From contig CALIMJ010000006.1 in the NCBI GenBank assembly GCA_938028835.1, positions 145,710-209,709 of the forward strand: a stretch of 64,000 bases of DNA, given 5' to 3'. The notes beneath the pieces are model-generated. The model saw nothing but the letters and a program-made list of their open reading frames with translations. It searched no databases and was not told the origin of the DNA. A program made the translations under genes and the position numbers. The DNA is from an uncultured bacterium (GTDB taxonomy: Bacteria; Sysuimicrobiota; Sysuimicrobiia; Sysuimicrobiales; Sysuimicrobiaceae). Positions 10,611-64,000 of this stretch are shown here, piece after piece. The number at the start of each line of letters is the position of its first letter. The stretch's first letter is position 1.

Positions 10611-10625
10611 GCCCGACGGATTCCG

Positions 10626-10666
10626 AGGTGCGCGGGGGCCCCGGACCGGGGCCCCCGCCTTCTCCG
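10626..10666 (+). terminator. Rho-independent terminator after cspA
   Basis: A GC-rich perfect hairpin 'gcgggggccccgg-acc-ggggcccccgc' is followed by 'cTTcTcc'. Confidence 0.6.
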
Positions 10667-10701
10667 GCGCGCAGGGAACGGCGTTCTGCCGCGCAGCCCT
10701 C

Positions 10702-10965: not shown

Positions 10966-11002
10966 CTTCCACGCGGGGACGCGCCCGGTTCGCTTCCCTC
11001 GC

Positions 11003-11897: not shown

Positions 11898-12033
11898 GCC
11901 GCCGCACCCTGAGCCCCGCATCCCGCACGTCCCCCCGCTGCCGTGCCCCAAGCACGGCCACGCCACCCAGGCGGTCCCGGGCGGGGTCTGGGGTTTTTCC
12001 GTTGGGTCGGCCGGCCACGCTCCGCGGGTCCGG

Positions 12034-20538: not shown

Positions 20539-21503
20539 CCCTCTTCCTGACCGAGGCGGAAGTGGCGTCCTTGGTGTCGGTCCCGGAGCTGGTGGACGCG
20601 CTGGAGCAGGCTTTCCGAGACAAGGCGGCGGGGCTGGCGGCCAACGTACCCAGGGGCCGTGCCACCCTGCCCGGAGGCACCGTGCTGCACGTGATGTCCG
20701 CAGCCTGGGGCCCCGGGGGCGTCACCGGCCTGAAGGCGTACACCACCTCCCGGGAGGGCGGGCGGTTCCTGGTGCTGCTGTACGACGAGCGGGGCCGCCT
20801 GCTGGCCCTCCTCCAGGCAGACACCCTGGGCCAGCGGCGCACCGGCGCGGCCACGGGTCTTGCTACCCGCTACCTGGCCCGGGAGGACGCCCGCACCGTG
20901 GCGGTTCTCGGCGCTGGGTGGCAGGCCCGCACGCAGCTGGAGGCGGTGTGCGCGGTACGGTCCATCCAGCGCGCGTGGGTGTTCAGCCGGACGCCCGAAC
21001 GCCGCGAGCGGTTCGTACAGGAGATGAGCCGGCACTTAGGGCTGCCCGTCATCCCCGCCTCCTCCGCGGAGGAAGCGGTACGGGAGGCGGACGTGGTGTG
21101 CACCATCACCACCGCCCGCGACCCGGTCCTGCTGGGCCGCTGGCTTCGGCCCGGGGTGCACGTCAATGCCGCGGGCTCCAACTGGGCCCACCGCAGGGAA
21201 CTGGACGCGGAGGCGGTGGCCCAGGCACACCGGGTGGTGGTGGACGACCTCCCTCAGGCCAGGGTGGAGTGCGGGGACCTGATCCAGGCGGCCGCGGAGG
21301 GAGCCTTCCAGTGGGACCGCGCCGCGGAGCTGGGGGACGTGGTGGCAGGGAAGGTGCAGGGTCGCGCATCCGCGCAGGAGGTGACCCTGTTCTGCTCCCA
21401 GGGCATCGCCCTGGAGGACGTGGTGGCGGCACGCCTGGCCTACGAGCGCGCCCGCGCCCGGGGGGTCGGGCGCCAGCTGGACCTGGGACTGGACGGACCG
21501 TGA
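20535..21503 (+). CDS. Ornithine cyclodeaminase / mu-crystallin family protein
   Basis: 'LKAYTTSREGGRFLVLLYDE...VAVLGAGWQARTQLEAVCAVR...NAAGSNWAHRRELD' shows the Rossmann GxGxxA motif and the OCD family pattern. Confidence 0.8.
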   Translation: MTLFLTEAEVASLVSVPELVDALEQAFRDKAAGLAANVPRGRATLPGGTVLHVMSAAWGPGGVTGLKAYTTSREGGRFLVLLYDERGRLLALLQADTLGQRRTGAATGLATRYLAREDARTVAVLGAGWQARTQLEAVCAVRSIQRAWVFSRTPERRERFVQEMSRHLGLPVIPASSAEEAVREADVVCTITTARDPVLLGRWLRPGVHVNAAGSNWAHRRELDAEAVAQAHRVVVDDLPQARVECGDLIQAAAEGAFQWDRAAELGDVVAGKVQGRASAQEVTLFCSQGIALEDVVAARLAYERARARGVGRQLDLGLDGP

Positions 21504-22204
21504 CCGGCGCCCTGCTGGAGGTGGCGCGAGCCTCCGAGGTGGTGGTCCTCGGCGGCGGCTGCTACGGCTGCTTTCACGCCCGGCAGCTGGTGAAGGCGGC
21601 ACAGCGGGGCCGGCTGCGCTACCGGCGGCTGGTGGTGGTGGACCGCAACCCGCAGGCGCGCGCCCACGCTGAGCTGGCCGGCGAGGCGGAGGTGGTCACC
21701 GCGGACTGGGCCGCGTTCCTGGTGGACTACGTGCCCGCCGCCCCCGCCGACGCGCAGCTCGTGCCCGCCCCTTTTGCCCCCCACGTGTTGGCGGACTGGC
21801 TGGTGGCCTCCCTGCGGCGCCTGCGCCCGCAGCTGCGCGTGTCCCGGCGTCCCCTGCCCGGGTCTTACCCGGTGGCTTACGACGTCACCGTGGAGGACCG
21901 GCGCTACCTGAGCGAGGCGGCCTGGCGGTGCCCGGCCACGTGTCCGGAGCCGGAGGTGTGCCCGGCCACGCGGGGCCCGCGCAGCTGGGACCTGGCCAGC
22001 ACCGTGCTGCAGTACTCGGACCTGCCGGTGCTGCACTTCTCGTGCCTGCACTTCGCGTACGGTGTCGGCACCATCCCGCTGCGGTCCCTGCAGGAGGCGC
22101 TGCACTGGCTGGTGGATCGAGCCGCACCGGGTCAGCAGGTCGCGGTCCTCACGGCGTCGCACTGTCACGGTGTCGGCACGTGTCTGGTGCTGGAGCAAGG
22201 GTGA
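21500..22204 (+). CDS. Hypothetical Cys-rich Rossmann-like protein
   Basis: Its GTG overlaps the OCD stop (GTGA). N-terminus 'VVVLGGGCYGCFHARQLV' (dinucleotide-binding-like), cluster 'CPATCPEPEVCPATRGP', later 'SHCHGVGTC'. No confident family assignment. Confidence 0.5.
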   Translation: MTGALLEVARASEVVVLGGGCYGCFHARQLVKAAQRGRLRYRRLVVVDRNPQARAHAELAGEAEVVTADWAAFLVDYVPAAPADAQLVPAPFAPHVLADWLVASLRRLRPQLRVSRRPLPGSYPVAYDVTVEDRRYLSEAAWRCPATCPEPEVCPATRGPRSWDLASTVLQYSDLPVLHFSCLHFAYGVGTIPLRSLQEALHWLVDRAAPGQQVAVLTASHCHGVGTCLVLEQG

Positions 22205-22241: not shown

Positions 22242-23699
22242 GTGAAGGTGTCGGCCTCGGACCGACCGTGGGACCGGCTGGCCTGCGACGTGCTGGCGAT
22301 CCCCGTGAGATCCGGAAAGCCCCTGGAGGGCCTGCAGCCCCTGGACGACGCCCTGGGCGGCTGGCTGCGCGACGCCGTGGCGCTGGACCACTTCGAGGGC
22401 AAAAGGGACACGGTCCTGCAGGTTCTCACCCACGGCCGCCTTCCCACCGCGCGGGTCCTCCTGGTAGGGACGGGCGCCGCCGAGGATCTCGCGGAGGCCA
22501 GTCGCCGGGCCGCGGCGGCCGCGGCCCGGCAGGCACAGGCGCTACGGGCCAAGCGGCTGGGGATCTGGCCGGGAGCCTTCCCACCGACCCCCGAGGTGGC
22601 GGCTGCCCTGGTGGAGGGGGCCCTGCTGGGCGCCTACCGCTACACCCGCTACAAACCCGACCCGACCCCCAGCCTGGAGTCCGTGGAGGTGGTGGGCGTG
22701 CGCGGTGCCGCCGCCGCGGTGCGCCGCGCACGGGTGCTGGCGGAGGCTACGTACTTCGCCCGGGACCTGGTGAACGGACCGCCCAACGAAGTGACCCCAG
22801 CGTCCCTGGCCCGCATCGCTCGCCAGCTGGGCCGCCAGGAGGGGCTGCGCGTGCAGGTCTTCGGGCCCCCGCAGCTGCGCCGGATGGGCGCAGGCGCCAT
22901 CCTGGCCGTCGGGGCCGGCAGCCGCCAGCCACCGCAGATGATTGTACTGGACTACCGGCCGCCCCGCGCCCGGAAGACCTACGTGGTGGTGGGCAAGGGG
23001 GTCACCTTCGACGCCGGCGGGCTGAACATCAAGTCCCATGAGGGCATGGAGACCATGAAGGCGGACATGGCGGGCGCCGCGGCGGTGCTGGCCTGCCTGC
23101 GGGCCCTGCCGGCCCTGGGGATCCCGCACCGCGTGGTGGGCGTGGTGGGTGCGGTGGAGAACCTGCTGGGGGAGGCGGCCTTCAAGCCCGGGGACGTAGT
23201 CCGGGCCCTGGACCGTCAGACCATCGAGATCACCAACACGGACGCGGAAGGGCGGGTGGTGCTGGCCGACTGCCTGGCCTACGCCCGCCGCTACCGTCCG
23301 GACGCGGTGGTGGACCTGGCCACCCTCACGGGGGCCGCCATCGTGGCCCTGGGGTACCATGCGGCAGCCATCCTGGGCAACGACCGGGACCTGGTTCGCA
23401 GTCTCGTGGAAGCAGGGCAGCGAGCGGGGGAGCGTCTGTGGGAGCTGCCCCTGTACGAGGAGTTCGTGGAGGCCATGCGGGGCGAAGTGGCGCAGTGGAA
23501 GAACTCCGGTGGCCGTTACGGAGGAGCGCAAAAGGGAGCGGCGTTCCTGCGCGCCTTCGTGGGACCCCACCCGTGGGCGCACCTGGACATCGCAGGCGTC
23601 GCTTTTCTGGACAAACAGGAGGGCCAGGCGCCGCACCTGCCCAAGGGGGCCACGGGCTTCGGCGTCCGGACCCTGCTGCGGTGGCTCGCGGAGGGATAG
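22242..23699 (+). CDS. pepA: Leucyl aminopeptidase (M17)
   Basis: C-terminal catalytic domain 'GKGVTFDAGGLNIK...NTDAEGRVVLADCLAYA'. RBS 'aaggaggagg' upstream of the GTG. Confidence 0.88.
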   Translation: MKVSASDRPWDRLACDVLAIPVRSGKPLEGLQPLDDALGGWLRDAVALDHFEGKRDTVLQVLTHGRLPTARVLLVGTGAAEDLAEASRRAAAAAARQAQALRAKRLGIWPGAFPPTPEVAAALVEGALLGAYRYTRYKPDPTPSLESVEVVGVRGAAAAVRRARVLAEATYFARDLVNGPPNEVTPASLARIARQLGRQEGLRVQVFGPPQLRRMGAGAILAVGAGSRQPPQMIVLDYRPPRARKTYVVVGKGVTFDAGGLNIKSHEGMETMKADMAGAAAVLACLRALPALGIPHRVVGVVGAVENLLGEAAFKPGDVVRALDRQTIEITNTDAEGRVVLADCLAYARRYRPDAVVDLATLTGAAIVALGYHAAAILGNDRDLVRSLVEAGQRAGERLWELPLYEEFVEAMRGEVAQWKNSGGRYGGAQKGAAFLRAFVGPHPWAHLDIAGVAFLDKQEGQAPHLPKGATGFGVRTLLRWLAEG

Positions 23700-23701
23700 C
23701 G

Positions 23702-23959
23702 GTGCCCCGGAACCTTGCGGTGGACGCGGTGGGCTGGCTCGGCGCCGCGCTTTTGCTGTGCGCCTATTTCCTGGTGTCCAGCCGGCGGGCGCACGGCGGG
23801 AGCCTGGTCTACCAGGGGCTCAACGCGGCCGGCAGCGTCCTGCTGGGCGTCAACAGCCTGTACTACGGCGCGGTCCCCTCGGCCTTCGTGAACGTGGTGT
23901 GGCTGGCCATCGCCATCTACGGTGCCCTCCGGGGCGCCCGGGAGCCCGCGGCGCACTGA
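23702..23959 (+). CDS. Small two-helix membrane protein
   Basis: 85 aa with two hydrophobic helices, immediately after pepA. Family uncertain (CBU_0592-like). Confidence 0.4.
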   Translation: MPRNLAVDAVGWLGAALLLCAYFLVSSRRAHGGSLVYQGLNAAGSVLLGVNSLYYGAVPSAFVNVVWLAIAIYGALRGAREPAAH

Positions 23960-23969
23960 GGAGGAGGAC

Positions 23970-24482
23970 CTACGTGCCTTCCCGACGACGCGCCCGCCCC
24001 TGGGCCTCCTCCACCAGCCGCCAGGCTGCCTCCGCCCCACCCCACCCGTAGATCTCCACCGGCTTGCGCTCCAGCTCCTTGTACACCGCGAAGAAGTGCT
24101 CCACCTCCCGCAGGAAGTGGGCCGGCACCCCCCGCAGGTCTGTCACCCCGTCGAAGCGGGGGTCTGCCACGGGGACTGCCAGGATCTTCTGGTCCCGGCC
24201 CTTCTCGTCCCGCATGTCCAGCACGCCGATGGGACGGACCTCCACCAGGCACCCCGGAAAGGTGGGCTCGAAGGTGAACACGAGGACGTCCAGGTGGTCG
24301 CCGTCCTCCGCCAGGGTGTCTTCCAGGAAGCCGTAGTCCGCGGGGTAGTGGAGGGGAGAGTACAGGACCCGGTCCAGCCGTACGCCCCGGACCGGGTCCC
24401 ACTCGTACTTGTTCCGGCTGCCCCGCGGGATCTCCACCCGGGCCAGCACGCTGCGGCCGCTCACGGGCTCTTCTCCTTCCAG
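23970..24482 (-). CDS. ppa: Inorganic pyrophosphatase (family I)
   Basis: 'VEIPRGSRNKYEWD...LHYPADYGF...DGDHLDVLV', the family I PPase signature. Confidence 0.88.
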   Translation of the reverse strand: MEGEEPVSGRSVLARVEIPRGSRNKYEWDPVRGVRLDRVLYSPLHYPADYGFLEDTLAEDGDHLDVLVFTFEPTFPGCLVEVRPIGVLDMRDEKGRDQKILAVPVADPRFDGVTDLRGVPAHFLREVEHFFAVYKELERKPVEIYGWGGAEAAWRLVEEAQGRARRREGT

Positions 24483-25156: not shown

Positions 25157-25230
25157 CTCCCCGCAGCGCCTTCACGGTTCGGTTACGCGGTCCCTCCTCT
25201 CCCTCCCTTCCCCGGAGCCGACCTGCGGCC

Positions 25231-26045
25231 TCACCACAGGGCGAAAACCCGGCACGGGCCCCCAGACCCTCCCGCCACCTTGGGGGCGCCCACGAATACC
25301 CAGGCGCCCGCGGGCGGGATCCGGGCAAGGTTGGCTAGATTCTCCAGTCCCCAGCGGTTGGCCGGAAGCCAGGTGCGGTGCGTCTTGAAGTCCTTGGAGG
25401 GCCCGAAGTCCAGGCTCAGGGTGTCCACCCCGATTCCCACCACGTCGCGTTCCCGGAGCAGGAACTCCACGGTGTCCGGGTGGAACCCCGGGAAGTGCAT
25501 CACCCCTGAGCTGTCAGGGTTGCGGAAGGCCTGGGAGCTTCCCACCCGGGACTCCCAACCGCTGTGCATGAACACCGCGGCGCCGCGGGGGAGGCGCCCG
25601 TACCGGCGCTCCCAGGCCCGGATGTCGTCGGGCATCACCCGCGCGTCGGGATCCTTGGCGGCGCGCTCGTGGATGTGCACCACCGCCACGGGTGCCACCA
25701 GCACTGCAGGGGCCAGCTGTTCCACCGTGCGGGCCCCTTCCCCGAAGTGGGCGGGCGCATCCATGTGGGTGCCGATGTGTTCGAAGTAGCTGATGTTCAG
25801 CCCGTAGTACCCGTCCTTCTGGACCGTGACCGCTACCTCCGTCCTGAACACCGGCTGGCCGGAGAAGGACGGGAACGTCGGCTTGAGGGTGTGAGGTCCT
25901 GGACCCTGCGGAACCCGGGCATCCGGGGCGCCGCCAGAACCTCTCGAGGCCCCAGCAGGCGGGAGCCCACCGCGCCCGCGGCCACCCCGGCTAGGGACTT
26001 CAGGAACCTCCTCCGGCTCACCTCCTCCGCCACCGCCTCCATCAC
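25231..26045 (-). CDS. Cyclase-family protein (kynurenine-formamidase-like), apparent frameshift between signal peptide and mature domain
   Basis: The mature domain 'GTHMDAPAHF...' is in one frame (25231..about 25930). A perfect twin-arginine signal 'SRRRFLKSLAGVAAGAVG...AAP' is in another frame (26045..25833). The frames swap near 'gcgccccgg' at about 25930. Confidence 0.6.
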
Positions 26046-26127
26046 CACGGGACCGCACACGGCCACCACCCCCTCCGGTCGTTTTTGACGGTGGTACGGG
26101 ACCGCCAGCCCGGATTCCTGCTCCCCG

Positions 26128-37454: not shown

Positions 37455-37721
37455 ATCCCACCTCCTGAGCCCGCTCCTCCCCAGGATACGGAACCCGCCC
37501 GCCGCAGGCCAGTCCCGCGCCGTGGCGGCGTCGCGGTAGGCTTTTGACCGAGGTGGCCGGCGGAGTCTCTGGGTTCGCCGGGTTCCTGGCGAACCTGGAG
37601 TTCCCGGCTCCTGGGCTGCTAGCGTGGCCCGTGGCAGCTCTGGAGTTCTCCGGGCGCCTGGCGTTGATCCCGGGTCTTCGAACTCAGCCCTGGCGCAAGC
37701 CCCGGGACAGGTGACATCAGG

Positions 37722-38035
37722 TCACGGTGTCGCCTCCGCGGCGGAGTCCAGAATCAGCTCGTAACGCTCCAGTTTCGAGGGCCCTCGGAAGGCCTCCCGG
37801 GGGAGGGTGTCGGGCCGCGCATGCCCCCGCTGGAACGCCTCCGAGCGGGTCCACGCCTCGAAAGCCTCCCGAGTCTCCCACACGGTGAGGACCACGTAGG
37901 GATCCTCCGGGTCCACCGGCCGCAACACCCAGTTCCGCACGAAGCCCGGCATGCGATCCACCTCCCGGGCCCGGGAGCGGAAGCGCTCCTCGAACGCCTC
38001 CTGGAACCCCGGGCTCACCGGGATCCGGTTCATCA
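37722..38035 (-). CDS. ABM-fold antibiotic-biosynthesis-monooxygenase-like protein
   Basis: About 104 aa reading 'MNRIPVSPGFQEAFEERF...VVLTVWETREAFEAWTRSEAFQ', a ferredoxin-like ABM domain. Confidence 0.65.
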
Positions 38036-38056
38036 CCACGAACACGCCACACCTCC

Positions 38057-39805
<1,749 letters not shown>

Positions 39806-39837
39806 GGTCCCCTCCGACGTGCGTGGGAGAGTTGAGC

Positions 39838-41790
39838 CTACAGACGGAGCCGACCCTGGGGGAGGTGCACGCCCAGCACGGAGGCCAGCAGCTCCAGGCC
39901 CGCCACCATCAGCGCGGCGTAGGCGACCGCTGTCGGCCAGCGGACTCGGGCCACGCCCACCAGAACCCACAGGCTCCACAGCACGGACGCCCACCGCAGG
40001 CCCACAAACCACGTGGCAGCCACGTAGAGCGCCAGGCTCGCCAGGTACGCGGCGCCCCGGCGCACGCGCTCCCGTACCGCGTGGGGTTCGGCCTCCACCT
40101 CGTCCTCGTCCGTCAGGGGACTGCTGCGGCCCCGCAGCTCCCGGACCAGCTGCACCGCGGTCAGCACCGTACCCGCTGCGGCCACGGACACGGGCATCAG
40201 GGCGGCGTTCGCCAAGAACCCCCGCGCGGTCCACCAGGCGTACCCGAACACCCCCAGTACCGCCGCGGTCGCCACCGCCGATGCTCCGATCGGCTGGCGG
40301 GCTGCCTCTGGCTCGGTCCGGGTCCGCTGGCGCAGCCACCGGAAGGCGCCCCACGCAAACGGGGCCACGACCAGCAGGCCGATCACCACGACCCCGGGCC
40401 GCAACAGCCAGTCCTCCGGCCGCGGGTACAGGTTCACCGTGAGGAAGTAGTAGCGTTCCAGCGGGTTGCTGAGGACGAACCCGATGAGCAGCGGGCCGCG
40501 CGGCCAGCCCGTGACCTTCAGCGCGTAGCCCGCCACCCCGAGGGCCACCAGGGAGACCAGGTCCCCGAAGTGCTGCGTCTCCTGGAAGGCAGCGAGGACC
40601 ATGGCCAGGACGATGGGCGGTGCGATGCGGTTGAACGGCACGTACGTGAGGCGGGCCAGCAGGGGGCTGGCGGCGAACATCACGCCGGCCCCCAGCACGT
40701 TGGCCAGCGCGAAAGACCACACCACGGTGTAGATGAGGTCCAGGTGCTGGGTGACGATGCGGGGTCCCGGCAGGATCCCGTACGCCAGCAGGGCGCCCAG
40801 GATCATGGCCGAGGGCGCCCCGCCGGGGACGCCGAACAGGAGGGTGGGCACCAGGTCCCCGGCCTCCACCGCGTTGTTGGCGGCCTCCGGGGCGATGATG
40901 CCGCGCACATCCCCCTTGCCGAAGCGCGACCGGTCGCGGCTAGTGGCCACTGCGTGGCCGTAGGCCATCAGGGTACCCGCGGTGGCCCCGATGGCGGGCA
41001 GCACCCCGGCCCACATGCCGATGAGCGCCCCCCGGATCACCAGCCACCTGTGCCGCCACACGTCCAGCGCGCCCTCCCACCACCCGCGGCCCAGCTCCGT
41101 CCGCTGCGCCACCGCGCCACCCCGGGCCAGCAGGGACACCACCTCCGCCACCCCGAACAGGCCCAGGGCCACCAGGGCCAGGTCGATCCCGTCGGTGAGG
41201 TAGACCTGACCGAAGGCGAAGCGGACCTCCGCGGCCGCGGGCGCGGGCCCCACGGTACCCAGCAGCAGACCCAGCAGGCCCGCACTGAGTCCCTTCAGGG
41301 GTTCCCGACCCAGCAGGCTACCTGCGAAGGAAACTCCCAGCACGGTCAGCATGAACAGCTCCGGGGACCCGAAGGAGAGCACCAGCGGCCGCGCGAGGGG
41401 GATGGACAGCGTCAGACCCAGGGCCCCGATGATCCCGCCCACCAGACTGGACAGGTAGGCCGCCGCCAGCGCCCGTGCTGCCTCCCCGCGGCGGGCCATG
41501 GGGTGACCCTCGATCATGGTGGGAACCGCGGCCGCGGAACCCGGCGCGCCGATCAACACCGACGTGATGGTGTCGGAGGTGTGAACCACCGCGAGGGCAC
41601 CCGTCACCATGGCCAGGGCCGCCGCGGGTTCCAGCTTCAGCATGAAGGGCAGCAGGATGGCCGCGGCCACGATCCCGCCCATGCCCGGCAGGATCCCGAT
41701 CAGCAGACCCACCCCGCTGCCCAGGGCCAGCATCCCGAGCCGCGTGGGGTTCAGGAACAGCCCCGCTGCCGCGCTCAGCGCTTCCGCCAT
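39838..41790 (-). CDS. tctA: Tripartite tricarboxylate transporter permease TctA with C-terminal TctB-like extension
   Basis: A 650-aa ORF. The first 500 aa or so are TctA-like ('LGSGVGLLIGILPGMGGIVAAAILLPF'). The last 150 aa or so form four hydrophobic segments resembling a fused TctB. Confidence 0.75.
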   Translation of the reverse strand: MAEALSAAAGLFLNPTRLGMLALGSGVGLLIGILPGMGGIVAAAILLPFMLKLEPAAALAMVTGALAVVHTSDTITSVLIGAPGSAAAVPTMIEGHPMARRGEAARALAAAYLSSLVGGIIGALGLTLSIPLARPLVLSFGSPELFMLTVLGVSFAGSLLGREPLKGLSAGLLGLLLGTVGPAPAAAEVRFAFGQVYLTDGIDLALVALGLFGVAEVVSLLARGGAVAQRTELGRGWWEGALDVWRHRWLVIRGALIGMWAGVLPAIGATAGTLMAYGHAVATSRDRSRFGKGDVRGIIAPEAANNAVEAGDLVPTLLFGVPGGAPSAMILGALLAYGILPGPRIVTQHLDLIYTVVWSFALANVLGAGVMFAASPLLARLTYVPFNRIAPPIVLAMVLAAFQETQHFGDLVSLVALGVAGYALKVTGWPRGPLLIGFVLSNPLERYYFLTVNLYPRPEDWLLRPGVVVIGLLVVAPFAWGAFRWLRQRTRTEPEAARQPIGASAVATAAVLGVFGYAWWTARGFLANAALMPVSVAAAGTVLTAVQLVRELRGRSSPLTDEDEVEAEPHAVRERVRRGAAYLASLALYVAATWFVGLRWASVLWSLWVLVGVARVRWPTAVAYAALMVAGLELLASVLGVHLPQGRLRL

Positions 41791-54350: not shown

Positions 54351-54483
54351 GCCGCCGGGTTTCGGCCTCCCCGGTGCGTCCTCCTTTCCGCGCACCGCGG
54401 CGCTACCCTAAATGCAGGGGGGACGGCCCCCGCCGGGATTTCCCTGGCGGGCAGCCCGACGCGTCGACACCCGGAGGACAGCC

Positions 54484-56043
54484 GTGCAGCTGGTGGTGTT
54501 GGACGGAGCCCGGACCATCGGGGGGACGAAGATCTACCTGCGGGAGGGACGGGCCGGGTTCCTGCTGGACTTCGGCCTGAACTACCAGCGCTGGGGCCAG
54601 TACTTTGACGAGTTCCTCAGACCCCGCACGGCCCGCGGCCTGTTCGACCTGTGGCAACTGGGACTGGTTCCACAGGCGGCCGGGATCTACCGCGAGGACC
54701 TGCTGGCGCCAGACTTCTCCGCGCCCCTGGGAGCGCCTGCCCTGGAGATCCAGGCGGCGTTCCTGAGCCACGCGCACCTGGACCACTGCGGCTTGGTGGG
54801 CGTGCTGCGATGCGATCTCCCCCTCGTGGCCTCGCGGCTGACCCTGGCCATCCTCAAGGCCCTCCAGGATACCGGGGCCGCGGAGTTCTACGGAGAGCTC
54901 GCGTACTGCCGACTGCGCAGGCCCAACCGGTCCGGGGAGCTGGAGGCGGACCGCAGCAGCGCTGGGTGCGTGGGCCGCCCCGCCCATGCTGCGGACGGTG
55001 CGCCGTCCCCGCAGCTGCAGCGCCTGTGGACCACCCTGCCCAGGCAGCGGCGGGCCCTGGACCCGCGGCCGGTGGCTCCTCCCGCGCCTGCTTACGGGGG
55101 AGTCCGCGTGCGCGTCTACCCCGTGGACCACTCCGTGCCGGGAGCCGTGGCCTTCGCCTTCGAGTGCTCCGAGGGGTTGGTGGTGTACACGGGAGACCTG
55201 CGGCACCACGGCCGCCACGCGCACCTGGTGGACACCTTCATCGCGGACCTCCAGCGCGAGCAGGTGCACGCCCTAGTGGTGGAGGGCACCCGCCTCACCC
55301 GGGAGACGCACGACCACGTCACGGAAGCCCAGGTGCTGGACAACGCCCGGACGGTGGTGGCCGCACGGCCCGGCCGGCTCGTGGTGGCGGACTTCGGACC
55401 CCGCCAGGTGGAGCGGCTGCAGACCTTCCTGCAGGCGGCGCACGAGACCGACCGCCAGCTGGTGGTCCTGCCCAAGGACGGGTACCTGCTGGAGGCCCTG
55501 GCCGCCGCGGACCCAGGCTTTGAGGAGATCCTCCGGCATCCCGCGCTGGCGTTTTTCGACCGACCGCGCCTGGTCCGCGACACCTGGTTGCGGGAGTTCA
55601 CCAACCGGCACCGCCACCGCCTGGTAGACGCAGAGGCCATCCGCCGGGACCCCGGCGCATACCTGCTGGCCTTCAGCTTCTTCGACCTCGTGGACCTCCT
55701 GGACGTGGATCCGCAGGACGGCGTGTACGTGTACTCGTCCTCCGAGGCGTACGGGGAGGACAACCGGGTGGACTTCTGGCGGCTGTGGAACTGGCTGCTG
55801 CGGCTGCGGATGGAGCCCCACGGCTTTCGGTGGGAGGGCGCCGACGAGCGGGGACGGCCCACCTTCGGAGGCGGCTTCCACGCCAGCGGGCACATCCACC
55901 CGGACGACCTACGGGACCTGATCCGGTCCGTCCGCCCCCGCTACGTGGTCCCGGTACACACGGAGAACCCGGCGTGGTTCGGGGAGAACCTCCGGGGTGA
56001 GCCCATCCGGGTGGTGCTGCTGGAGAACGGGGAAGTCCTCTGA
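54484..56043 (+). CDS. beta-CASP family metallo-beta-lactamase nuclease (RNase J / SNM1-like)
   Basis: MBL motif 'SHAHLDHCG', 'TGDLRHHG', beta-CASP motif B 'HASGH' and motif C 'VPVHTE'. A Pro/Arg-rich low-complexity insert lies at about 54900-55100. Divergent from the ERCC4 gene with 133 nt between the starts. Confidence 0.72.
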   Translation: MQLVVLDGARTIGGTKIYLREGRAGFLLDFGLNYQRWGQYFDEFLRPRTARGLFDLWQLGLVPQAAGIYREDLLAPDFSAPLGAPALEIQAAFLSHAHLDHCGLVGVLRCDLPLVASRLTLAILKALQDTGAAEFYGELAYCRLRRPNRSGELEADRSSAGCVGRPAHAADGAPSPQLQRLWTTLPRQRRALDPRPVAPPAPAYGGVRVRVYPVDHSVPGAVAFAFECSEGLVVYTGDLRHHGRHAHLVDTFIADLQREQVHALVVEGTRLTRETHDHVTEAQVLDNARTVVAARPGRLVVADFGPRQVERLQTFLQAAHETDRQLVVLPKDGYLLEALAAADPGFEEILRHPALAFFDRPRLVRDTWLREFTNRHRHRLVDAEAIRRDPGAYLLAFSFFDLVDLLDVDPQDGVYVYSSSEAYGEDNRVDFWRLWNWLLRLRMEPHGFRWEGADERGRPTFGGGFHASGHIHPDDLRDLIRSVRPRYVVPVHTENPAWFGENLRGEPIRVVLLENGEVL

Positions 56044-56056
56044 GAGGCGGGTCGCC

Positions 56057-57184
56057 TCACACCCCTGCCTTCCGCTCCCGCACCGCCACCCCCGCGGCCC
56101 GGGCCAGCTCCCGGTGGATGCGGGCGGTGCGTTCCACCTGCCCCTTGGCGGGGAACCGCTCGTAGAACCCGTCCGCCCGGAACATCCGCCGCAGGTCCGC
56201 CCACGGCTGCAGCCGCTCCTCCCAACGGCGGACGCGCCCTTCCTCCGGCTCGGCGTCCGTGGCCGCCAGGTCCGCGCACACCCGGATCATGGCCTTGAGG
56301 GTGACCGGACGCGTCACCATGTAGTTGGGATTGCCCCAGGCGTCCTGCCACACCCGCTCCGCGGCCCGGAGGAAGTCCCGCAGGACCCCGTAGTAGTCCT
56401 CGGGCCGCGTCCCGGATCGCTCGATCTCGGACCAGGTAGCCCGGGCCCAGCGGTGCAGCTCGTTGAACAGCTCCGCCTGCAGGATCCACTTCTCCTGGCG
56501 GCTCCGTCCGCCGGGCCGGTTGATCTTGTACCGCAGGGGGCTGGAGGGCTCCTCGTACAGCATGCGGGCCACGCGGGCCGCGAACTTCTTGTCGGGGGTA
56601 GCCTGCCACCAGGTCACGCGCTCGTACAGCTCCACCAGGTGGCTCTTGTTGATCCGGGTGGGCGTGGCGTTGATGATCACGAACATCTCCGCGGCGAAGT
56701 CCTCGCTGCGGCCGTCGAAGATCACGCACGGCACCTGGATGGTCCGGGCGTCCTCCGGCCGCTCGCGCCGGTAGAACTCCAGAGCCGCCAGGCGGTGCTG
56801 CCCGTCGATGATAAGGTACTTGCCCTCCGGCTCCCGCAGGTCCCCCACGCTCTCGTAGCGGTCCACGGGCTCGAAGCGCAGCGGCTCCGGGGTAAACAGC
56901 AGCACCGTGCCCGGAATGGGCGGCTGCTCGCCCGCGGTCTCGTAGAAGTTCAGGATCTCCCGGACCTTGCGCCTCGACAGCTGCCGCTGGAACGCCCGGT
57001 CGCTGCGCTCGATGCGGGCGATGAACTGGGCGATCTCGTCCCCCTCCGGCGCCGGCTCCGGCGCGATGGTCTCCCCCTCCCCGTAGAACCGGCTCATGAA
57101 GCGCACCTTCGCCAGCAGGTCCTCCGCGCGGTACGCGACGAAGTAAAACACCCCGTCCTTCTGCCGGATCTGTGTGGCCAGCAC
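56057..57184 (-). CDS. DGQHR-domain protein (DndB-like, ParB/Srx-fold)
   Basis: 375 aa containing 'YLIIDGQHRLAALEFY', the DGQHR signature shared with DndB and DUF262-type ParB-like nucleases. GTG start with a GGGAGG RBS. Confidence 0.7.
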   Translation of the reverse strand: MLATQIRQKDGVFYFVAYRAEDLLAKVRFMSRFYGEGETIAPEPAPEGDEIAQFIARIERSDRAFQRQLSRRKVREILNFYETAGEQPPIPGTVLLFTPEPLRFEPVDRYESVGDLREPEGKYLIIDGQHRLAALEFYRRERPEDARTIQVPCVIFDGRSEDFAAEMFVIINATPTRINKSHLVELYERVTWWQATPDKKFAARVARMLYEEPSSPLRYKINRPGGRSRQEKWILQAELFNELHRWARATWSEIERSGTRPEDYYGVLRDFLRAAERVWQDAWGNPNYMVTRPVTLKAMIRVCADLAATDAEPEEGRVRRWEERLQPWADLRRMFRADGFYERFPAKGQVERTARIHRELARAAGVAVRERKAGV

Positions 57185-57402: not shown

Positions 57403-60400
57403 TCAGCGCACCGCCACCGGCTCGGGGCTCTGACGCGCGATGCGCATGGACACCACCGAGGACACCCCAGGCTCCTCCGTGGTCACGCCGTACAGCACGT
57501 CCGCCGCCTCCATGGTGGCCTTGTTGTGGGTGATGATCACCACCTGGCTGCGCTGGGCCAGCTCCCGCAGCAGCTCCACCACCCGTCTCGTGTTGGCGTC
57601 GTCCAGGGCGGCCTCGATCTCGTCGAATACGCAGAACGGGCTCGGGTGGGTCTTCAGGAGGGCGAACACCCACGCCAGAGCTACCAGCACCCGCTCGCCC
57701 CCGGACAGCGCGGCCAGGGACCGGACTTTCTTCCCCGGAGGCTGGGCGCGAACTTCCACCCCCTCCTCCCCCTCTTCGGTGGTCGTGAGCTCCAGGAACG
57801 CTCGCCCGCCCCTGAAAAGCCGGCGGAAGCAGTCCTGGAAGTGCCGGTTCACCTCCTCGAAGGTCTGGCGGAACCGCTGGCGCAGTACCGACTCGAGCCG
57901 CGACGCCAGCTCAAAGACCAGCGCCGCGGCCTCCTCCACGTCCCGGGCCTGCACGGACAGGGCTTCGTAGCGCGCCTGCACGTCCCGGTAGTCGTCCAGC
58001 GCCTGCAGGTTCACGGGCCCCAGACCGGCCAGTAAGCCCTGTAAAGCCTCCACCTCCCCCAGCAGGGCGTCCCGGTCCAGCCGCTCCGGCGCCTGCGCAT
58101 CCAGGACCTCCGGAGAGGCCTGGTAGGCCTCCCGGAGCCGACGCTCCGCCGCCCCGAGCTCCGCGGCCCCCTGCGCCAGCCGCAGGTCCAACCGGTGCAC
58201 CTCTTCCTGTGCGGCCTGGCAGGTCTGGCGGGCGGAGGCCAGGCGAGGCTCCAGCTCCGCCGCGGACTGCTCTTCCCTGCCGCGGGCGGTGGCCGCCTGG
58301 TCGGCCCGCGCTCGGAGTCCGTCCAGGCGCTGGCGGGCCCACGCGGCCCGCTCCGCCGCCCGCTCCGCCAGCTCCCGGAACTGCCGGAGCTCAGCTTCCC
58401 GGGTCTGCAGCTCCGCCTGCAACCGCGCCTGCCGGCCTTCCAACATAGCCTCTTCCCGCTCCAGGTCCGCTAGCCGCGCCCTCGCCGCCTGGTTGTGGGC
58501 CTGAAGCTCCGCGTGCCGCACGTGCAGGGCGGCCACCTCTGCCGCGGCGGCCTGCACCGCGGCCTCCGCTTCGTGCTGGCGCCGGCGTGCCTCCTCCAGC
58601 TTCCCGCGGGCCTCCGCCAGCTCCACAGCCAGGCGGTCCAGATCCGCGGCCCACCGGCTCTCCTCCTCCCGGGTCTCCTGCAGCTGCTGGTGGACCTGGT
58701 ACAGTTCCCCCCGCACCTGCTCCTCCAGACCCGGCAGGCCTGCCTCTCTGGCCTCTGCCCGCGCGAGTTCCTCTCGCACCCGGTGCAGGTGAGCCTGAAG
58801 CCGCTCCACCCGCTCCTGCTCGCCCGCGAGCCTGATCCCCGCGGCCTCCCGCTCCGCGTCCAGCCCGCGCGCCTGCTCTCTCAGGTCCCCCTCGGCGCGG
58901 TCCAGGTCGAACAGGGACTGCCGCAGCGCCGCGATCTCCTGTACCCGCGCCAGCGGGGTCGAAGAACCGTTGCGGCGCACCAGCAGCAGGCCGTCAGCCG
59001 TCAGCACCTCCCCCGCAAGGGTGACCAGGCGGCCGCGCCACCCGGAAGACCAGACTTGCACAGCCGCTTCCAAGTCCCGCACCACCAGGGTGCCGTGCAG
59101 CCCGGCCCTCACCGCACGCTCCACCAGGGGCGGACAGCGGACCAGGTCCCGCGCCCACCCCACGACCCCCTCTGCCCCGGCCGGCAGGGGCAGCTCAGGA
59201 CCGGCGTCGCAGGCAACCTCCGTCACGAGGAAGGAGGCACTGTCCGCGTCCAGTTCCTCCAGGACCCTGCGGGCGACCTGCCACGAGTCCACCACCAGCG
59301 CAAAGAGCCGGTCCGCGAGGGCGGCTTCCACCGCGCGCCGGTGCTCGGGGTCTACGTCCAAAAGGTCCACGAGGGCCCCCCGCACGCCCGCGAACCGTCC
59401 CGGCTCGCTCCGCTGAGCCAGCAGCACGCGGCGCGCTCCCGCCTCGTAGCCCACCAGCTGCGCCTGCGCTTCCTCAAGCACTGCGAGCCGGGCCCGCTCC
59501 CTCTCCCGGCGCAGCTGCAGGTCCCGGTGTGCCTCCTCCAGCTGCGCCCTGCGGTCGGTGAGCTCGTCCCAGCGCTTGCGGAGTTCGGTCAGGCCGGCCG
59601 CGAGGGTCCGCAGCTGCCCGCCGACCTCCGCTTCCTCCGCCCGCAGGGCTGCCCGGCGGGCTTCCAGCTCGCGGCGCTCCGCCTCCAGCCGGTCCAGCTG
59701 GGCCTTCAGGGCCTGCGCGCGTGACGCGAGGGCGTCTTGGCGGGCGCGCGCCGCGTTGCGGGCGCTGTGCGCCTGGGCCCGAGCGTGTTCCAGTTCCACC
59801 ACGTCCGCCCGGGCTGCCTCCACGTCCGCCCGGGCCTGTTCCGCTGTTGCCTGGCAACCTTCGAGCTCCTGCTGCAGTTGCTGCAACTGACGGGCGCACG
59901 CCTCCGCCGCCTGCGCTCCGTCGGCCACCTCCTCGCGGAGGCGGGCCAGGGACGCACCGCAACCCTCGCGCTCCTGCACCAGCCGGTCGAGCTCCTGGCG
60001 GATGCGCTCCAGCATCTGCCCGGCCCCCGAGGCACGCTCCTCGCACAGCCGGGCGTCCTGCTCGGCGCGGCCCGCTTCCTCCAGGGCCCTCACCACCTCC
60101 GCCTGGAGTCCGGCCAGCACCTGAGCCGCCTGCTGCGCCCGGGCCCGCGCCAGCGAAAGCTCCCGCTCCACCGCCTCCTGGGCCGCCTGCGCCTGGGCGT
60201 GCCGCTGCCGGGCCGCCTCCACCTGAGCGGAGATCCGCCGGAGCTGCGCCCGTAGGCGGCGGTACTCGCCCACCTGCAGGTACAGCTCGGCACGGCGCAA
60301 CCGCTCCTGGTACTCACGGTGCAGGCTCGCCCGCTCCGCCTGGCGCGCCAGCTCCTGGGCACGTCCGTGCAGTTCCGCCAGCCGGTCCACGACCCGCGTC

Positions 60401-60962
60401 AGGTTCTGGCGCGCGTGCTCGAGCCGTCGCGCCGCCTCGTGATGGCGGCGCTTGTACCGCGAAAGCCCCGCCGCCTCCTCCAGCATGGCCCGCCGTTCTG
60501 TGGGGGAAGCATCCAGGACCGCGTCCACCTCGCCCTGGCCGATCAAGGCGTAGGCCCGGCCACCCAGGCCGGTCCCGAGGAACAGCGCCTGGACGTCCCG
60601 CAGCCGGCACGGCGTGCGGTTCAGGAGGAACTCGCTGTCGCCGGCCCGGGTCGCCCGGCGGGTGAGGGTGACCTCGGTGAACTCCACGGGCAGGACGCCG
60701 TCCTCGTTGTCCACCGTCAGGTGGACTTCCGCCATCCCGTGCGCCCGCCGGGTGCTGGTCCCCGCGAAGATCACGTCCTCGGTGCGCTGACTGCGCAGGG
60801 CCTTCCAGGAGGTCTCGCCCAGCACCCACCGGATCGCGTCCGCCAGGTTGCTCTTGCCGGACCCGTTGGGCCCCACGATGGCGGTGATCCCGGGCCCGAA
60901 CAGCAGCTCCGTACGGTCCGCGAAGGTCTTGAACCCGCTCAACTCCAGCCGCTTGAGGTACA
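57403..60962 (-). CDS. smc: Chromosome partition protein Smc
   Basis: 'MYLKRLELSGFKTF...GPNGSGKSN' Walker A, long coiled coils, a hinge 'RFAGVRGALVDLLDVDPEHRRAVEAALADRLFALVVD', and a C-terminal 'LSGGERVL...VFDEIEAALD' signature with D-loop. About 1186 aa; the 1300-aa ORF extension is spurious. Confidence 0.9.
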
Positions 60963-61009
60963 TGGTCCCCTCCGTCCGCGCCGCGTGTGTGCAAGACTGC
61001 GCTCCGCGG

Positions 61010-62188
61010 TCACGCTGCGTCCAGCAACGACCGGTACAGCTCCACCAGACGGCCCGCCACCCGCCGGGCGGAGAACCGCTCCGACTCCTGGCGCGCCTGG
61101 TCGGCCATCCACCGCCGCAGGCCCTCGTCCTCCACCAGCCGCGCCACCGCCTGCCCGAGGAGGTCCGGTGACGGATCCACCAGCAACCCCGTGCGGCCGT
61201 GCTCGACCACCTCCGCCACACCTCCCGCCCGCACGGCCACCACGGGTGTCCCGCAGGCCAGGGCTTCCGCCACCACAAGCCCCTGCGTCTCCGTGCGGGA
61301 CGCAAACGCGAAAACCCACGCGGCCTTCATCCACGCCACCACGCCCTCCCACGGCAGGGAGCCCAGGAACCGCACCCGGGCCTCCACCCCCAGCCGCCTG
61401 GCCAGCTGGCGCAGGGAGTCCAGGCTCGGACCGCCCCCCACCAGGACCAGGTAGGCGCCGTGAAGCCCTCGCGTGCGGGCGAACGCCTCCAACACCACGT
61501 CCATGCTCTTCTCGGGGGCCATGCGCCCCGCGGACACCACCAGGGGCGCGTCCGGGGGGATGCCGAACACGGTGGGATCCGCGGTCGCTACCCGCCCCAG
61601 CGCCTCCAGGTCCAGGGCAGCGGTTCCCACCACCTCCACCCTGGACCGCACGCCACGGGCCCGGAGGAACTCCCCCACCGCGCGGGTGGGGGCGACCACC
61701 AGGTCGCACCGGTTGCAGAAACGCACCACGTGCCACCGGACCCACCGCCTCGCCAGGAACCCGGGGATCAGGGGGGCGTAGTGCACGTAGTGCTCGTACA
61801 GGGTGTGGTGCGTGAACACCAGGGGGCGCCGGCCGCGACTGGCCGACGCCAGCCGGCCTGCGGCGAAGGGCGAGTGGGTGTGCACCACCTGCAGTCCCAG
61901 GTCGCGCACGCGGCGCTCCAGGTCGCCCACCAGGGGGACCAGCAGGGGAAAGTCGGGGTAGCGGGAGGTCGCCACGGACGGGAGACGGACCACGTCGGGT
62001 TCGTTGTCACGGTAGCCCGGGTGGTGGGGGGCGAACACCACCACCCGGTGGCCCTGCTCCCTCAGGGCCTGAGCCACTGCAGCCACGGAATGGACCACCC
62101 CACTGAGCCTGGGCCGGTAGGAGTCCGTGAACATGCCCACCGCCAGACCTCCCCGGTCCCCCTTTCCGGGCCCTGTTTTTGCGGACAC
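61010..62188 (-). CDS. Glycosyltransferase family 4 (GT-B fold)
   Basis: 392 aa with a C-terminal 'EGFGLVVAEALACGTPVVA' E-x7-E-like GT4 motif. Confidence 0.8.
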   Translation of the reverse strand: MSAKTGPGKGDRGGLAVGMFTDSYRPRLSGVVHSVAAVAQALREQGHRVVVFAPHHPGYRDNEPDVVRLPSVATSRYPDFPLLVPLVGDLERRVRDLGLQVVHTHSPFAAGRLASASRGRRPLVFTHHTLYEHYVHYAPLIPGFLARRWVRWHVVRFCNRCDLVVAPTRAVGEFLRARGVRSRVEVVGTAALDLEALGRVATADPTVFGIPPDAPLVVSAGRMAPEKSMDVVLEAFARTRGLHGAYLVLVGGGPSLDSLRQLARRLGVEARVRFLGSLPWEGVVAWMKAAWVFAFASRTETQGLVVAEALACGTPVVAVRAGGVAEVVEHGRTGLLVDPSPDLLGQAVARLVEDEGLRRWMADQARQESERFSARRVAGRLVELYRSLLDAA

Positions 62189-62248
62189 GTTTCGCCTACC
62201 GCCACGCGCGGGCCCGCGCGTTCAAGCGCTGGAGGCATGCGGTGCTCC

Positions 62249-62602
62249 TCACGGCCCGCCCTCCACCAGCTCCAGCAGGTCCGACAGCCGGAACCGCCGG
62301 TGCCCGCCTGCGGTTCGGGTGCACCGGAGCTTTCCCTGGTCCGTGTAACGGCGGAGCGTGGCTTTGCTGACGTTGAGGATCAGCGACGCCTCGTGCAGGG
62401 TGAGCTCGGGGTCCAGCAGACGCCGGATGAGCTCCTCCCGGCTCTCCGAAAAGGGGCGCCGGCCGCCCCGGGGTGGCCGGGGAGGAGGCACGTCCATGGG
62501 CAACGCCTCCTGTCGGGCCAGCCTCGCCAGCTTGGCCCGCGCGTCCGTCCGACCCTGCCGCCCGACCCTGGCCGGTCCGTCGCCTGCTGACCGTCCGTCC
62601 AT
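62249..62602 (-). CDS. Excisionase-family / MerR-like HTH DNA-binding protein
   Basis: The C-terminus 'LTLHEASLILNVSKATLRRYTDQGKLRCTRTAGGHRRFRLSDLLELV' matches the HTH_17 excisionase-type DNA-binding domain pattern. The N-terminal extent is uncertain. Confidence 0.6.
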   Translation of the reverse strand: MDGRSAGDGPARVGRQGRTDARAKLARLARQEALPMDVPPPRPPRGGRRPFSESREELIRRLLDPELTLHEASLILNVSKATLRRYTDQGKLRCTRTAGGHRRFRLSDLLELVEGGP

Positions 62603-62889
62603 AGCTCCCTCGAAAGACTTGACGGCTTTACTGCCAAAAGCCTGCGTGGAGTTTTCGCACCCGCCGCACGGGACTCCTGCGCGTGGGGCACGGACTCCGT
62701 GATGCCGGCCGCGGTGGACGGGTCCGCGCTCGCTGGGCCTACGATGGCGCCGAGATGGAGTAAACGGGCCTGCGGAGGAGGTCGTGGCCGACCTGAGGCA
62801 GCCCGTTTCCATGCGGACGTGGAGGTGGTCTGCCGCCGGCCGGACCGAAGCCTCCTCCGAAACCTCCCCCGACACCGTCCTCGCCACGG

Positions 62890-63498
62890 CCCGCCATCCG
62901 AAGCCACCTGCGCCCGTGGATGGAAGGCTGGCCGGAGGAGCTGCAGTACGAGGCCCTCACGAAACAGGGCACCCCGGTACCGCTGCTGGAAGCCCGGATG
63001 GTGTCGGAAGTCGGGGGAGTCCCCCGGACGGCCGGACGCCCGGGGAGCTGCAGGTCCGCGGCCCCTGGGTGGCGGCGAGCTACCACCGGGGAGAGACTCC
63101 CGACAGTTGGACCCCCGACGGCTGGTTCCGGACCGGGGACGTGGCGGTGGTGGATTCCGGGGGCCAGATCCGGATCCTAGACCGCACCAAGGACCTCATT
63201 AAGTCCGGGGGCGAGTGGATCAGCTCGTGGCCCTGGAGAACGCCCCCAAAGTCCAGGAGGCCGCGGTGGTGGCGGTTCCTCACCCCAAGTGGATGGAGCG
63301 GCCGCTCGCGGTGGGGGTCCGCGGCCCGGGCAGGCGCCTACGCCGGAGGAGTCGCGGGCTGTTCTGGGCCAGCGGTTGCCCAATTGGTGGCTGCCCGACG
63401 CCTTCGTGTTCGTCGCCGAGATCCCCAAGACCAGCACGGGCAAGCTGGCCAAAGCGGTGCTCCGGGAGCGGTACCGCACCTGGAGCTGGAGCTGAGCC
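62890..63498 (+). pseudogene. Acyl-CoA synthetase (AMP-binding) C-terminal remnant, N-terminally truncated and multiply frameshifted
   Basis: Fragments from three frames assemble into '[19 protein letters not shown]...[62 protein letters not shown] / [33 protein letters not shown] / [48 protein letters not shown]'. There are at least three frame breaks. The roughly 350-aa adenylation N-domain is missing; the HTH and GT genes occupy its place. Confidence 0.7.
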
Positions 63499-63570
63499 GT
63501 CCGGACGGACGGCGCCCGCCGCGGGTCCGCGGGTGGCGGGGGCCTGCCGCCCGCGGTACCATCGTCGTGC

Positions 63571-64000
63571 CATGCGCCGCGTGTACCTGGACCACAGCGC
63601 CACCAGCCCCGCCCTGCCGGAGGTGGTGGAGGCGGTGAGGGAGGTGCTGGAGCACGTCCACGGGAACCCGGCCTCCCTGCACGGCATGGGGCTCGAGGCG
63701 GAGCGGGTCCTGGAGCGCGGCCGGCAGGTGCTGGCGGCTTCCCTCGGCGCCGACCCCTCGGAGGTGGTGTTCACCTCGGGGGGCACGGAGGCCAACAACC
63801 TGGCGGTGTTCGGGACCGCCTGGGCCCGGCACAAGCCCCACGTGGTGGTCTCCGCCTTCGAGCACTCCTCGATCCTGGAGCCCGCCCGGCGCCTCAGGGA
63901 GATGGGGGTGGAAGTGGACTTCGCTCCGGTGGACCCCGAAGGGTTCGTGCGCACCGACGCCCTCGCGGACCTCCTGCGGCCCCACACCGCGCTGGTAAGC
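63571..64000 (+). CDS. Cysteine desulfurase (class V aminotransferase; IscS/NifS-like), 5' part only
   Basis: '[22 protein letters not shown]...NPASLHGMG...[10 protein letters not shown]'. The ORF runs off the window end. Confidence 0.85.

Follow-up and report, generated by a model that had tools for sequence, protein, structure and literature searches.

What became of the acyl-CoA synthetase (ACS) gene of which only broken peptides can be read near the end of a 64,000-nucleotide stretch of DNA from an uncultured Sysuimicrobiaceae bacterium (GenBank assembly GCA_938028835.1, contig CALIMJ010000006.1; this whole stretch is here called the window), and does the place mark an edge of mobile DNA? 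A preliminary description of the locus had recognised a C-terminal ACS remnant spread over three frames, beside a gene for a small helix-turn-helix (HTH) protein of the excisionase/MerR type and a GT4 glycosyltransferase gene, and had proposed that these two genes had replaced the roughly 1 kb encoding the adenylation domain, possibly at the edge of an old integrative element. The data presented here point with high confidence to a different answer, namely that the region is a unitary pseudogene of an ACS of the long-chain fatty-acyl-CoA synthetase (LC-FACS) type, a member of the ANL superfamily, which was eroded in place. What carries this reading is a set of observations: orthology and synteny with an intact gene, the lesions themselves, the reproducibility of those lesions across assemblies, and an excess of substitutions on the branch leading to the window.

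Identity and reading frames of the remnant

Three-frame translation of 62600-63560 places ACS peptides in three frames, and the decayed LC-FACS-type ACS as a whole occupies 62784-63498 (+). Its contiguous 3' block, numbered by the codons of the intact gene of a sister species described below, and the order of the frames within that block are as follows.

62895-63498 (+): contiguous 3' block of the ACS pseudogene, sister codons ~326-529 and the stop codon at 63496-63498
62896-63021 (+): ACS remnant in frame 1
63022-63226 (+): ACS remnant in frame 0
63227-63322 (+): ACS remnant in frame 2
63323-63498 (+): ACS remnant in frame 1

When the frames are corrected, the resulting product of 198 aa matches residues 342-537 of the 541-aa chain of PDB 1ult_A, the LC-FACS of Thermus thermophilus (E=6.7e-57), and, after this manual frame correction only, it matches the Pfam model AMP-binding_C (PF13193) with E=2.3e-15 and 57.7 bits against a cut-off of 24.5. 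These two matches bear out the C-terminal remnant over three frames that had been reported at this place. The 3' block comprises the end of the N-terminal domain, the FRTGD motif, the hinge-region motif and the C-terminal domain with PKTSTGK, and in the alignment to 1ult_A both the A8 hinge and the A10 lysine motif (PKTSTGK) are visible. The match to the AMP-binding model (PF00501) is confined to the last 46 of 384 positions (21.3 bits, below the cut-off of 29.9), and the remnant contains neither the P-loop TSGTTGxPKG nor the GYGxTE motif of the N-terminal adenylation domain. Of the hallmarks of a functional LC-FACS, the C-terminal domain with its hinge and lysine motif is present; there is no single uninterrupted ORF (open reading frame) of ~530 aa, since three frameshifts, four large deletions and one of 12 nt break the gene, and no functional enzyme can be made from the remnant. 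Third-position GC (GC3), which is ~0.9 in the real genes of the host genome (genome GC 72%), changes frame at the same points as the ACS peptides.

With the sister ACS as query, tblastn found no second ACS copy in the 64-kb window. A 544-aa ORF at 54412-56043 had been considered as an intact ACS paralogue and was rejected, being an MBL (metallo-beta-lactamase)/RNase-J-like protein. Likewise rejected was the assignment of one peptide, first taken as the GxTE(T)SP motif region, which alignment resolves into two fused islands, SETSP (from before the P-loop) and ADTVLAT.

An intact orthologue at the same locus

By a genome scan with SMC, the closest species is Candidatus Tepidifontimicrobium thermophilum, with 90% aa identity; Tepidifontimicrobium belongs to the Sysuimicrobiaceae, in the phylum CSP1-3/Sysuimicrobiota of hot-spring bacteria (PMC11604079). 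In ten contigs of this sister species (L004-L013), ACS, nifS and thiI are transcribed in that order in one direction and, divergently from them, HTH, GT4, smc, a small ORF and a DGQHR-domain gene in the other. The sister ACS, lying between nifS and HTH, is 529-539 aa long with both AMP-binding and AMP-binding_C domains, matches 1ult_A end to end (E=2.6e-158) and passes NCBIfam NF004837 (long-chain-fatty-acid--CoA ligase) with 516 bits against a cut-off of 476. An intact ACS of 529-593 aa holds this position between nifS and the divergent HTH-GT4-smc not only in L004-L013 but also in three further lineages (L014-18, L024 and L029/30).

When window 61901-64000 is compared with the sister by blastn, two flanks align at 89% and 87% identity with a 49-nt piece between them, and ~870 nt of sister sequence remain unmatched; identity to L004 is ~89% over the high-scoring segment pair that covers the ACS 3' block and the 5' part of nifS. 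The alignment to related genomes that had been proposed as a check has thus yielded an intact ACS at the same locus, in syntenic position between flanks 87-89% identical, as a unitary pseudogene would have it, and has allowed the internal deletions to be placed. Exact sequence matches to HTH, GT4 and SMC, the products of the neighbouring genes, led to the orthologue. They also placed these three window proteins on a 214-kb contig, and at NCBI the MAGs of their cluster mates are labelled Armatimonadota. A word-indexed protein search with the repaired fragment returned only proteins of 53-62% identity, mostly partial, and missed the sister orthologue present in public metagenome-assembled genomes (MAGs); the absence of a close intact relative, which that fragment search would suggest, is wrong, as the sister shares ~89% nucleotide identity over the region.

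Anatomy of the deletions

Base-level alignment to the intact sister ACS in L004 (coordinates 9755 downward) resolves the pseudogene into retained pieces and deletions.

62784-62812 (+): native ACS 5' end, with the GTG start at 62784, 9 codons and an internal ATG at 62810-62812; aligns to L004 9755-9726
after 62812: deletion 1, 49 nt, shifting the frame
62813-62850 (+): island 1, 38 nt, sister codons 18-30; 35 of 38 nt identical to L004 9677-9640
between islands 1 and 2: deletion 2, ~403 nt
62856-62868 (+): island 2, 13 nt, sister codons ~165-169 (SETSP, just before the P-loop); 13 of 13 nt identical to L004 9236-9224
between islands 2 and 3: deletion 3, ~123 nt
62869-62889 (+): island 3, 21 nt, sister codons ~210-217 (ADTVLAT); 20 of 21 nt identical to L004 9100-9080
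between island 3 and the 3' block: deletion 4, ~325 nt
63021/63022, 63226/63227 and 63322/63323 (+): 1-nt deletions in the 3' block
63243/63244 (+): 12-nt deletion in the 3' block, with loss of the residues LMAH

The native beginning of the gene is still recognisable. A Shine-Dalgarno (SD) sequence, GGAGGAGG, at 62774-62781 precedes the GTG start at 62784, SD and GTG together spanning 62774-62786; the internal ATG at 62810-62812 is the start of the 529-aa form of ACS, and in L005 and L007 a 538-aa ACS is called from the homologous GTG. Residues 14-34 of the sister ACS find a tblastn match at 62801-62863, and the 44-nt middle piece chains colinearly on the deleted sister segment with a score of 32, against 17.8 +/- 1.8 for shuffled sequences, none of 500 shuffles reaching 32. 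Deleted in the window are sister codons ~31-164, 170-209 and 218-325, including TSGTTGRPKG and GWGMTE, so that the four internal deletions together remove ~900 nt (~300 codons). Every one of the eight indels in what was once coding sequence is a deletion, the sizes ranging from 1 nt to ~403 nt.

The description of the gene as truncated at its N-terminus is accordingly right in that the adenylation domain is mostly gone, but the lesion is not a simple truncation, as the SD with its GTG, the internal ATG and three N-terminal islands are kept. The further proposal that the HTH and GT4 genes took the place of the adenylation-domain DNA has to be abandoned: both adjoin an intact ACS in relatives, and ~900 nt were deleted inside the gene. 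The presence of an intact ACS beside HTH-GT4-smc in those relatives identifies HTH and GT4 as ancestral divergent neighbours, and nothing was inserted.

Reproducibility of the lesions and relaxed constraint

The same lesions recur in contigs other than that of the window. In L001, a 92-kb contig from a different sample (ERZ6863514), window 61901-64000 is matched with 99.6% identity over 2100 nt, 8 mismatches and 0 gaps, and in L003, the Logan assembly of ERR9287632, window 61901-63115 is matched with 0 gaps. Because the window and L001 differ by single-nucleotide polymorphisms (SNPs; 22 over 6.7 kb), they represent distinct strains that carry all lesions in common. Each of GT4, smc, the DGQHR gene, HTH and nifS gives a single uninterrupted full-length tblastn match to the sister protein, and the indels are therefore specific to the ACS remnant. 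The claim that at least three frameshifts reflect real decay stands on these grounds.

Substitutions in the 196 remnant codons were polarised with two outgroups, L014 and L024. The window branch carries 29 substitutions (codon positions 7/7/15; 13 synonymous, 16 non-synonymous) and the sister branch 11 (codon positions 1/2/8; 9 synonymous, 2 non-synonymous), a 2.6-fold difference, whereas the control genes are symmetric, with 129 substitutions on the window branch and 108 on the sister branch in smc, 30 and 40 in GT4, and 17 and 13 in the DGQHR gene. The asymmetry in rate of the remnant relative to these controls is significant (Fisher p=0.018), and constraint on the remnant is relaxed, as in a unitary pseudogene. 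The non-synonymous excess (~14) is some 40% of the figure expected for a branch under complete neutrality, which makes the inactivation probably recent relative to the sister split; by this rough reckoning from the sequences, it would probably fall within the last ~40% of the branch since that split.

The start codon of the dead gene also opens a reading frame that public annotation has taken for a protein.

62784-63638 (+): chimeric 284-aa ORF, opening at the native ACS start and running 67 nt into nifS

This ORF is in the native ACS frame only over islands 2-3 and 63022-63226, lies mostly outside the GC3-preferred frame and matches no Pfam family at E<=0.01. The public gene record calls it as a protein at L001 2477-3331 (equivalent to window 62784-63638), a call that is most likely an annotation artefact of pseudogene read-through, and the 284-aa 'hypothetical protein' in public gene calls should be flagged as such.

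Presence and absence of the gene across relatives

Nine lineages share the locus, and in them the ACS is intact in four (L004-13, L014-18, L024 and L029/30), absent in four (L019-21, L023, L025 and L027/28) and half-eroded in one, that of the window. In the ACS-less lineages nifS is separated from HTH or GT4 by spacers of 181-295 nt, in which no credible ACS islands were found; fragments of 3-19 nt only were recovered, inconsistent between reference lineages, and amount to noise. A neighbour-joining (NJ) tree with bootstrap, built on 1275 aligned aa columns of NifS, GT4 and SMC, groups the window lineage with L004 (100%), L024 with L029 (100%) and these two with L019 (92%), and L014 with L027 (100%) and these two with L025 (80%), while its deep nodes are weak (51%). 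ACS-positive and ACS-negative lineages are interleaved in every clade of this tree. Pairwise ACS identity follows the tree, being 85% between L024 and L029 and 74-79% otherwise, and the position, orientation and boundaries of the gene are the same in all ACS-positive lineages. The most economical reading that this distribution suggests is that the common ancestor had ACS and that four or five lineages lost it independently, with the window caught while loss is in progress.

Neighbouring genes and intergenic signals

The remnant lies between genes that are conserved on both sides.

57403-60963 (-): smc, SMC protein of 1186 aa
61010-62140 (-): GT4 glycosyltransferase, 376 aa, intact, 92% aa identical to the sister protein; native neighbour
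62249-62602 (-): HTH_17/MerR-like ('excisionase-family', BldC-like) DNA-binding protein, 117 aa; Pfam HTH_17 (PF12728), E=2.9e-13
62603-62783: HTH-ACS divergent intergenic region, retained, ~86% identical to the sister
63499-63571 (+): ACS-nifS spacer, 73 nt (50 nt in the sister)
63572-64000 (+): 5' part of a cysteine desulfurase gene (nifS/iscS-like, Aminotran_5), intact and running off the window; 95% aa identical to the sister over 143 aa

The assignment of 62249-62602 (-) to an excisionase-family/MerR-type HTH gene was correct. Beside its HTH_17 match, the protein reaches 40.4 bits on the 'excise' domain model TIGR01764 (cut-off 28.8), and on the BldC-family model NF033787 it scores 39.7 bits, below the cut-off of 77. 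Gene callers start it at ATG 62497, which gives an 82-aa form with an exact match in the sequence collection; an ATG further upstream, at 62602, and the N-terminal extension recur from lineage to lineage, which makes 117 aa the probable length of the protein. HTH stands upstream of GT4-smc in eight of the nine lineages and GT4-smc is found in all nine, and because HTH stays with GT4-smc in ACS-less genomes it is not the excisionase of a mobile element, nor does it serve ACS alone as a regulator. Its behaviour is that of a chromosomal gene of regulator type, and 'excisionase' is a domain name only. In the most divergent lineage, L025 (Ca. Sysuimicrobiota ERB_18_2), no HTH was found by tblastn (E<=1e-8) in the 295-nt spacer between nifS and GT4 (3262-3556), and the gene has there been either lost or has diverged too far to be detected.

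Two elements of the divergent intergenic region are conserved with or without ACS in an eight-lineage alignment: an AT-rich element at ~62606-62660 (CGAAA...GCTTTTGGC..AAAAGC.GTCAAG) and the motif GCAGGAG(T)CC, GGACTCCTGC, at ~62672-62681. Judged by this conservation they are probably a promoter or operator of HTH/GT4-smc; a sigma-70 promoter scan found nothing. On the other side of the remnant, 26 nt directly after the ACS stop, at 63499-63524, are extra relative to the sister; this sequence, unique in the window, could form a 7-bp hairpin (GCCGTCC-GGAC-GGACGGC), although its folding is not significant (z=-0.83).

Window 40-64 kb, L001, L019 and L023 yielded neither tRNA nor tmRNA, the sole tRNA call being a dubious 'tRNA-???' inside thiI of L004, and the whole window gave no Rfam family. 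Direct or inverted repeats flanking the remnant were limited to short, low-identity ones at chance level in 60.5-64 kb, Pfam hits to an integrase were lacking for the genes called up to 10 kb away in L001 and L004, and synteny is kept on both sides of the locus in nine lineages. Within this scope none of the marks of an integrative element was found, neither an integrase or tRNA, nor repeats, nor variable or compositionally distinct cargo. A discontinuity in GC skew and codon usage had been proposed as a check; GC runs at 0.68-0.76 without a step across 50-64 kb. Beyond the window end L001 has the rest of nifS and then thiI, with no integrase called within 10 kb. The gene thiI follows nifS in L001 and in all relatives, and the sister contigs add a cupredoxin-like gene, a LuxR/GerE regulator and thiS.

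Some features of the surroundings are recorded here in their own right. GT4, which keeps its position directly upstream of smc, passes PF20706 'GT4-conflict' (36.6 bits, cut-off 26); among NCBIfam models it comes closest to monoglucosyl-diacylglycerol synthase, where its 141 bits stay far short of the cut-off, and one cluster mate is named 1,2-diacylglycerol 3-glucosyltransferase. The DGQHR-domain protein at 56060-57184 (-), equivalent to L004 15364-16491, scores 130 bits on TIGR03187 and has weak DndB/DpdB similarity. Its gene lies just downstream of smc in every lineage with downstream sequence, most contigs having an ORF of 47-52 aa between the two, and the protein is 90-96% aa identical between lineages whose SMC proteins are only 64-69% identical, which is unusually conserved for this neighbourhood. 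In L027 (6473-9020; Logan assembly) smc is called in two pieces of 684 and 173 aa, through a frameshift or an assembly error. At 1737-1976 of L020, an ACS-less lineage, a 79-aa Transposase_mut fragment lies by a Uma2 endonuclease gene ~4 kb from the locus, where the near-identical L019 has a 53-aa ORF called. Finally, five stretches of the window (10610-12034, 19696-21912, 23699-24461, 25171-26089 and 37721-39838) hold no single long ORF with typical codon-position GC and could be atypical genes or further pseudogenes.

Discussion

The data support with high confidence a model of how the locus reached its present state. By this model ACS was present, between nifS and the divergent HTH-GT4-smc, in the ancestor common with Ca. 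Tepidifontimicrobium thermophilum, and it became dispensable in the window lineage. Four internal deletions (~49, 403, 123 and 325 nt) took the P-loop and most of the adenylation domain while leaving the SD, the start and three islands, and the remaining 3' 600 nt gained three 1-nt deletions and one of 12 nt. The deletions may have been separate events arising from the usual deletional bias of bacteria, and the ACS-less relatives may represent the end-point of the same erosion. A fuller version of this scenario, in which at least four or five independent ACS losses occurred at this one Sysuimicrobiaceae locus, the window is a rare snapshot of mid-erosion and the 5' end is the last to go because it still drives nifS-thiI, is put forward only tentatively and may well prove wrong. 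If true, it would offer a small natural series in which to study in what order genes erode and what constrains the process, and would hint that these hot-spring autotrophs have convergently lost fatty-acid activation.

Several points weigh against erosion in place by stepwise deletion. The evidence comes from MAG and metagenome assemblies only, and the paralogue search covered the 64-kb window; a FACS elsewhere in the genome may compensate for the loss. Microhomology at the deletion junctions is weak, amounting to 1 nt at two of them and perhaps to a TCCGAA repeat of 6-7 nt where the 403-nt deletion lies, and the four 'separate' deletions could be one complex template-switching event. No lineage with only some of the deletions was found among the other members of the HTH cluster, all of which have the gene either fully intact or fully absent. 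The contrast of non-synonymous to synonymous changes is, by itself, marginal (Fisher p=0.07 against the sister branch and p=0.16 against the window's control genes), for which reason the signal of relaxed constraint rests mainly on the asymmetry in rate.

Other explanations of the locus fare worse. That HTH and GT4 DNA was inserted into the 5' kilobase of ACS or replaced it, leaving the scar of an integrative or mobile element, deserves almost no credence. Such a scar would suit the TIGR01764 and HTH_17 domains of the HTH protein, the 36.6 bits of GT4 on PF20706 and the adenylation-domain DNA that is indeed missing; however, HTH-GT4-smc adjoins an intact ACS in four other lineages and nifS in four ACS-less ones and is thus a fixed chromosomal block, the window still has the start codon of ACS and the intergenic region between ACS and HTH, and tRNA, att or IS-end repeats, a compositional step and, among the called genes within 10 kb, an integrase are all wanting. 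A sequencing or assembly artefact, whether of the frameshifts or of the whole lesion, with a full-length gene existing in reality, is very improbable. The same lesions stand with 0 gaps in the independent L001 assembly, with its 22 SNPs over 6.7 kb, and for the 5' part they are borne out by a third assembly; no frameshift interrupts the ~7 kb of coding sequence nearby; deletions of 12 nt and ~900 nt are not typical error types; and non-synonymous substitutions are in excess. The suspicion owes what force it has to the metagenome-assembled source contig and to two of the 1-nt deletions, which lie beside short G/C runs.

It is also conceivable that ACS was not ancestral and was gained independently or by transfer in the ACS-positive groups, the remnant being a decayed acquired gene. 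The patchy presence on the tree, the lack of detectable ACS islands in the 181-295-nt spacers and the weak deep nodes (51%) would fit such a history, which we nevertheless regard as quite improbable, given the same position, orientation and boundaries in all ACS-positive lineages, ACS identities (74-85%) that mirror those of the flanking genes and the species tree, the lack of mobile-element features, and a window lineage that directly shows loss by deletion at the locus. Retention of the remnant for a function, either as promoter or leader of the nifS-thiI operon, which would explain the survival of the 5' end, or through the 284-aa ORF as a new protein, we hold to be unlikely. In its favour, the window keeps the SD and the start together with the region upstream of them, and gene calling in L001 reports the ORF. 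The distance from the ACS stop to the start of nifS is as short as 49-50 nt in three intact lineages, the fourth, L029, having 128 nt, and this suggests co-transcription; prediction gave no intrinsic terminator in the stretch from the remnant to nifS. However, ACS-less lineages express nifS from a 181-295-nt spacer, so that the gene body is not needed, the remnant shows a raised number of substitutions, distributed across the codon positions, and most of the 284-aa ORF lies outside the frame that GC3 favours, with no family matching it. Erosion in place of a once intact ACS therefore remains by far our preferred account, and the main value of the analysis lies in a correction, as the locus is not a mobile-element boundary.

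Comparison with known systems

The remnant is most closely comparable with the LC-FACS of T. thermophilus (PDB 1ULT/1V25/1V26; NF004837; PF00501 and PF13193), to which it aligns at residues 342-537, including FRTGD, the hinge and PKTSxGK. Unlike that enzyme, the window copy is a pseudogene with its coding sequence scattered over three frames; ~300 codons are gone, among them those of the P-loop and of most of the adenylation domain, and four residues that should follow the hinge are missing. The neighbouring HTH gene shares its domain (TIGR01764, PF12728) with the excisionase-family and BldC-like small MerR-type HTH proteins; unlike a recombination directionality factor, it has no integrase partner, att sites or mobile-element context, and it is always located between nifS or ACS and GT4-smc.

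The erosion of bacterial pseudogenes by deletional bias is a known process (Mira, Ochman & Moran 2001; Kuo & Ochman 2010). The likeness of the present locus to it lies in its indels, all eight of which are deletions, and in the complete removal of the gene in related lineages. The case is a conventional one, of an already known kind and with nothing conceptually different, and its all-deletion indels make the dead gene a clean illustration of that bias. The pattern hints that a fatty-acid-activating ACS is dispensable in several Sysuimicrobiaceae lineages. What is notable is only that three states of one locus, intact, half-eroded and absent, have been sampled within one family of uncultivated hot-spring bacteria.

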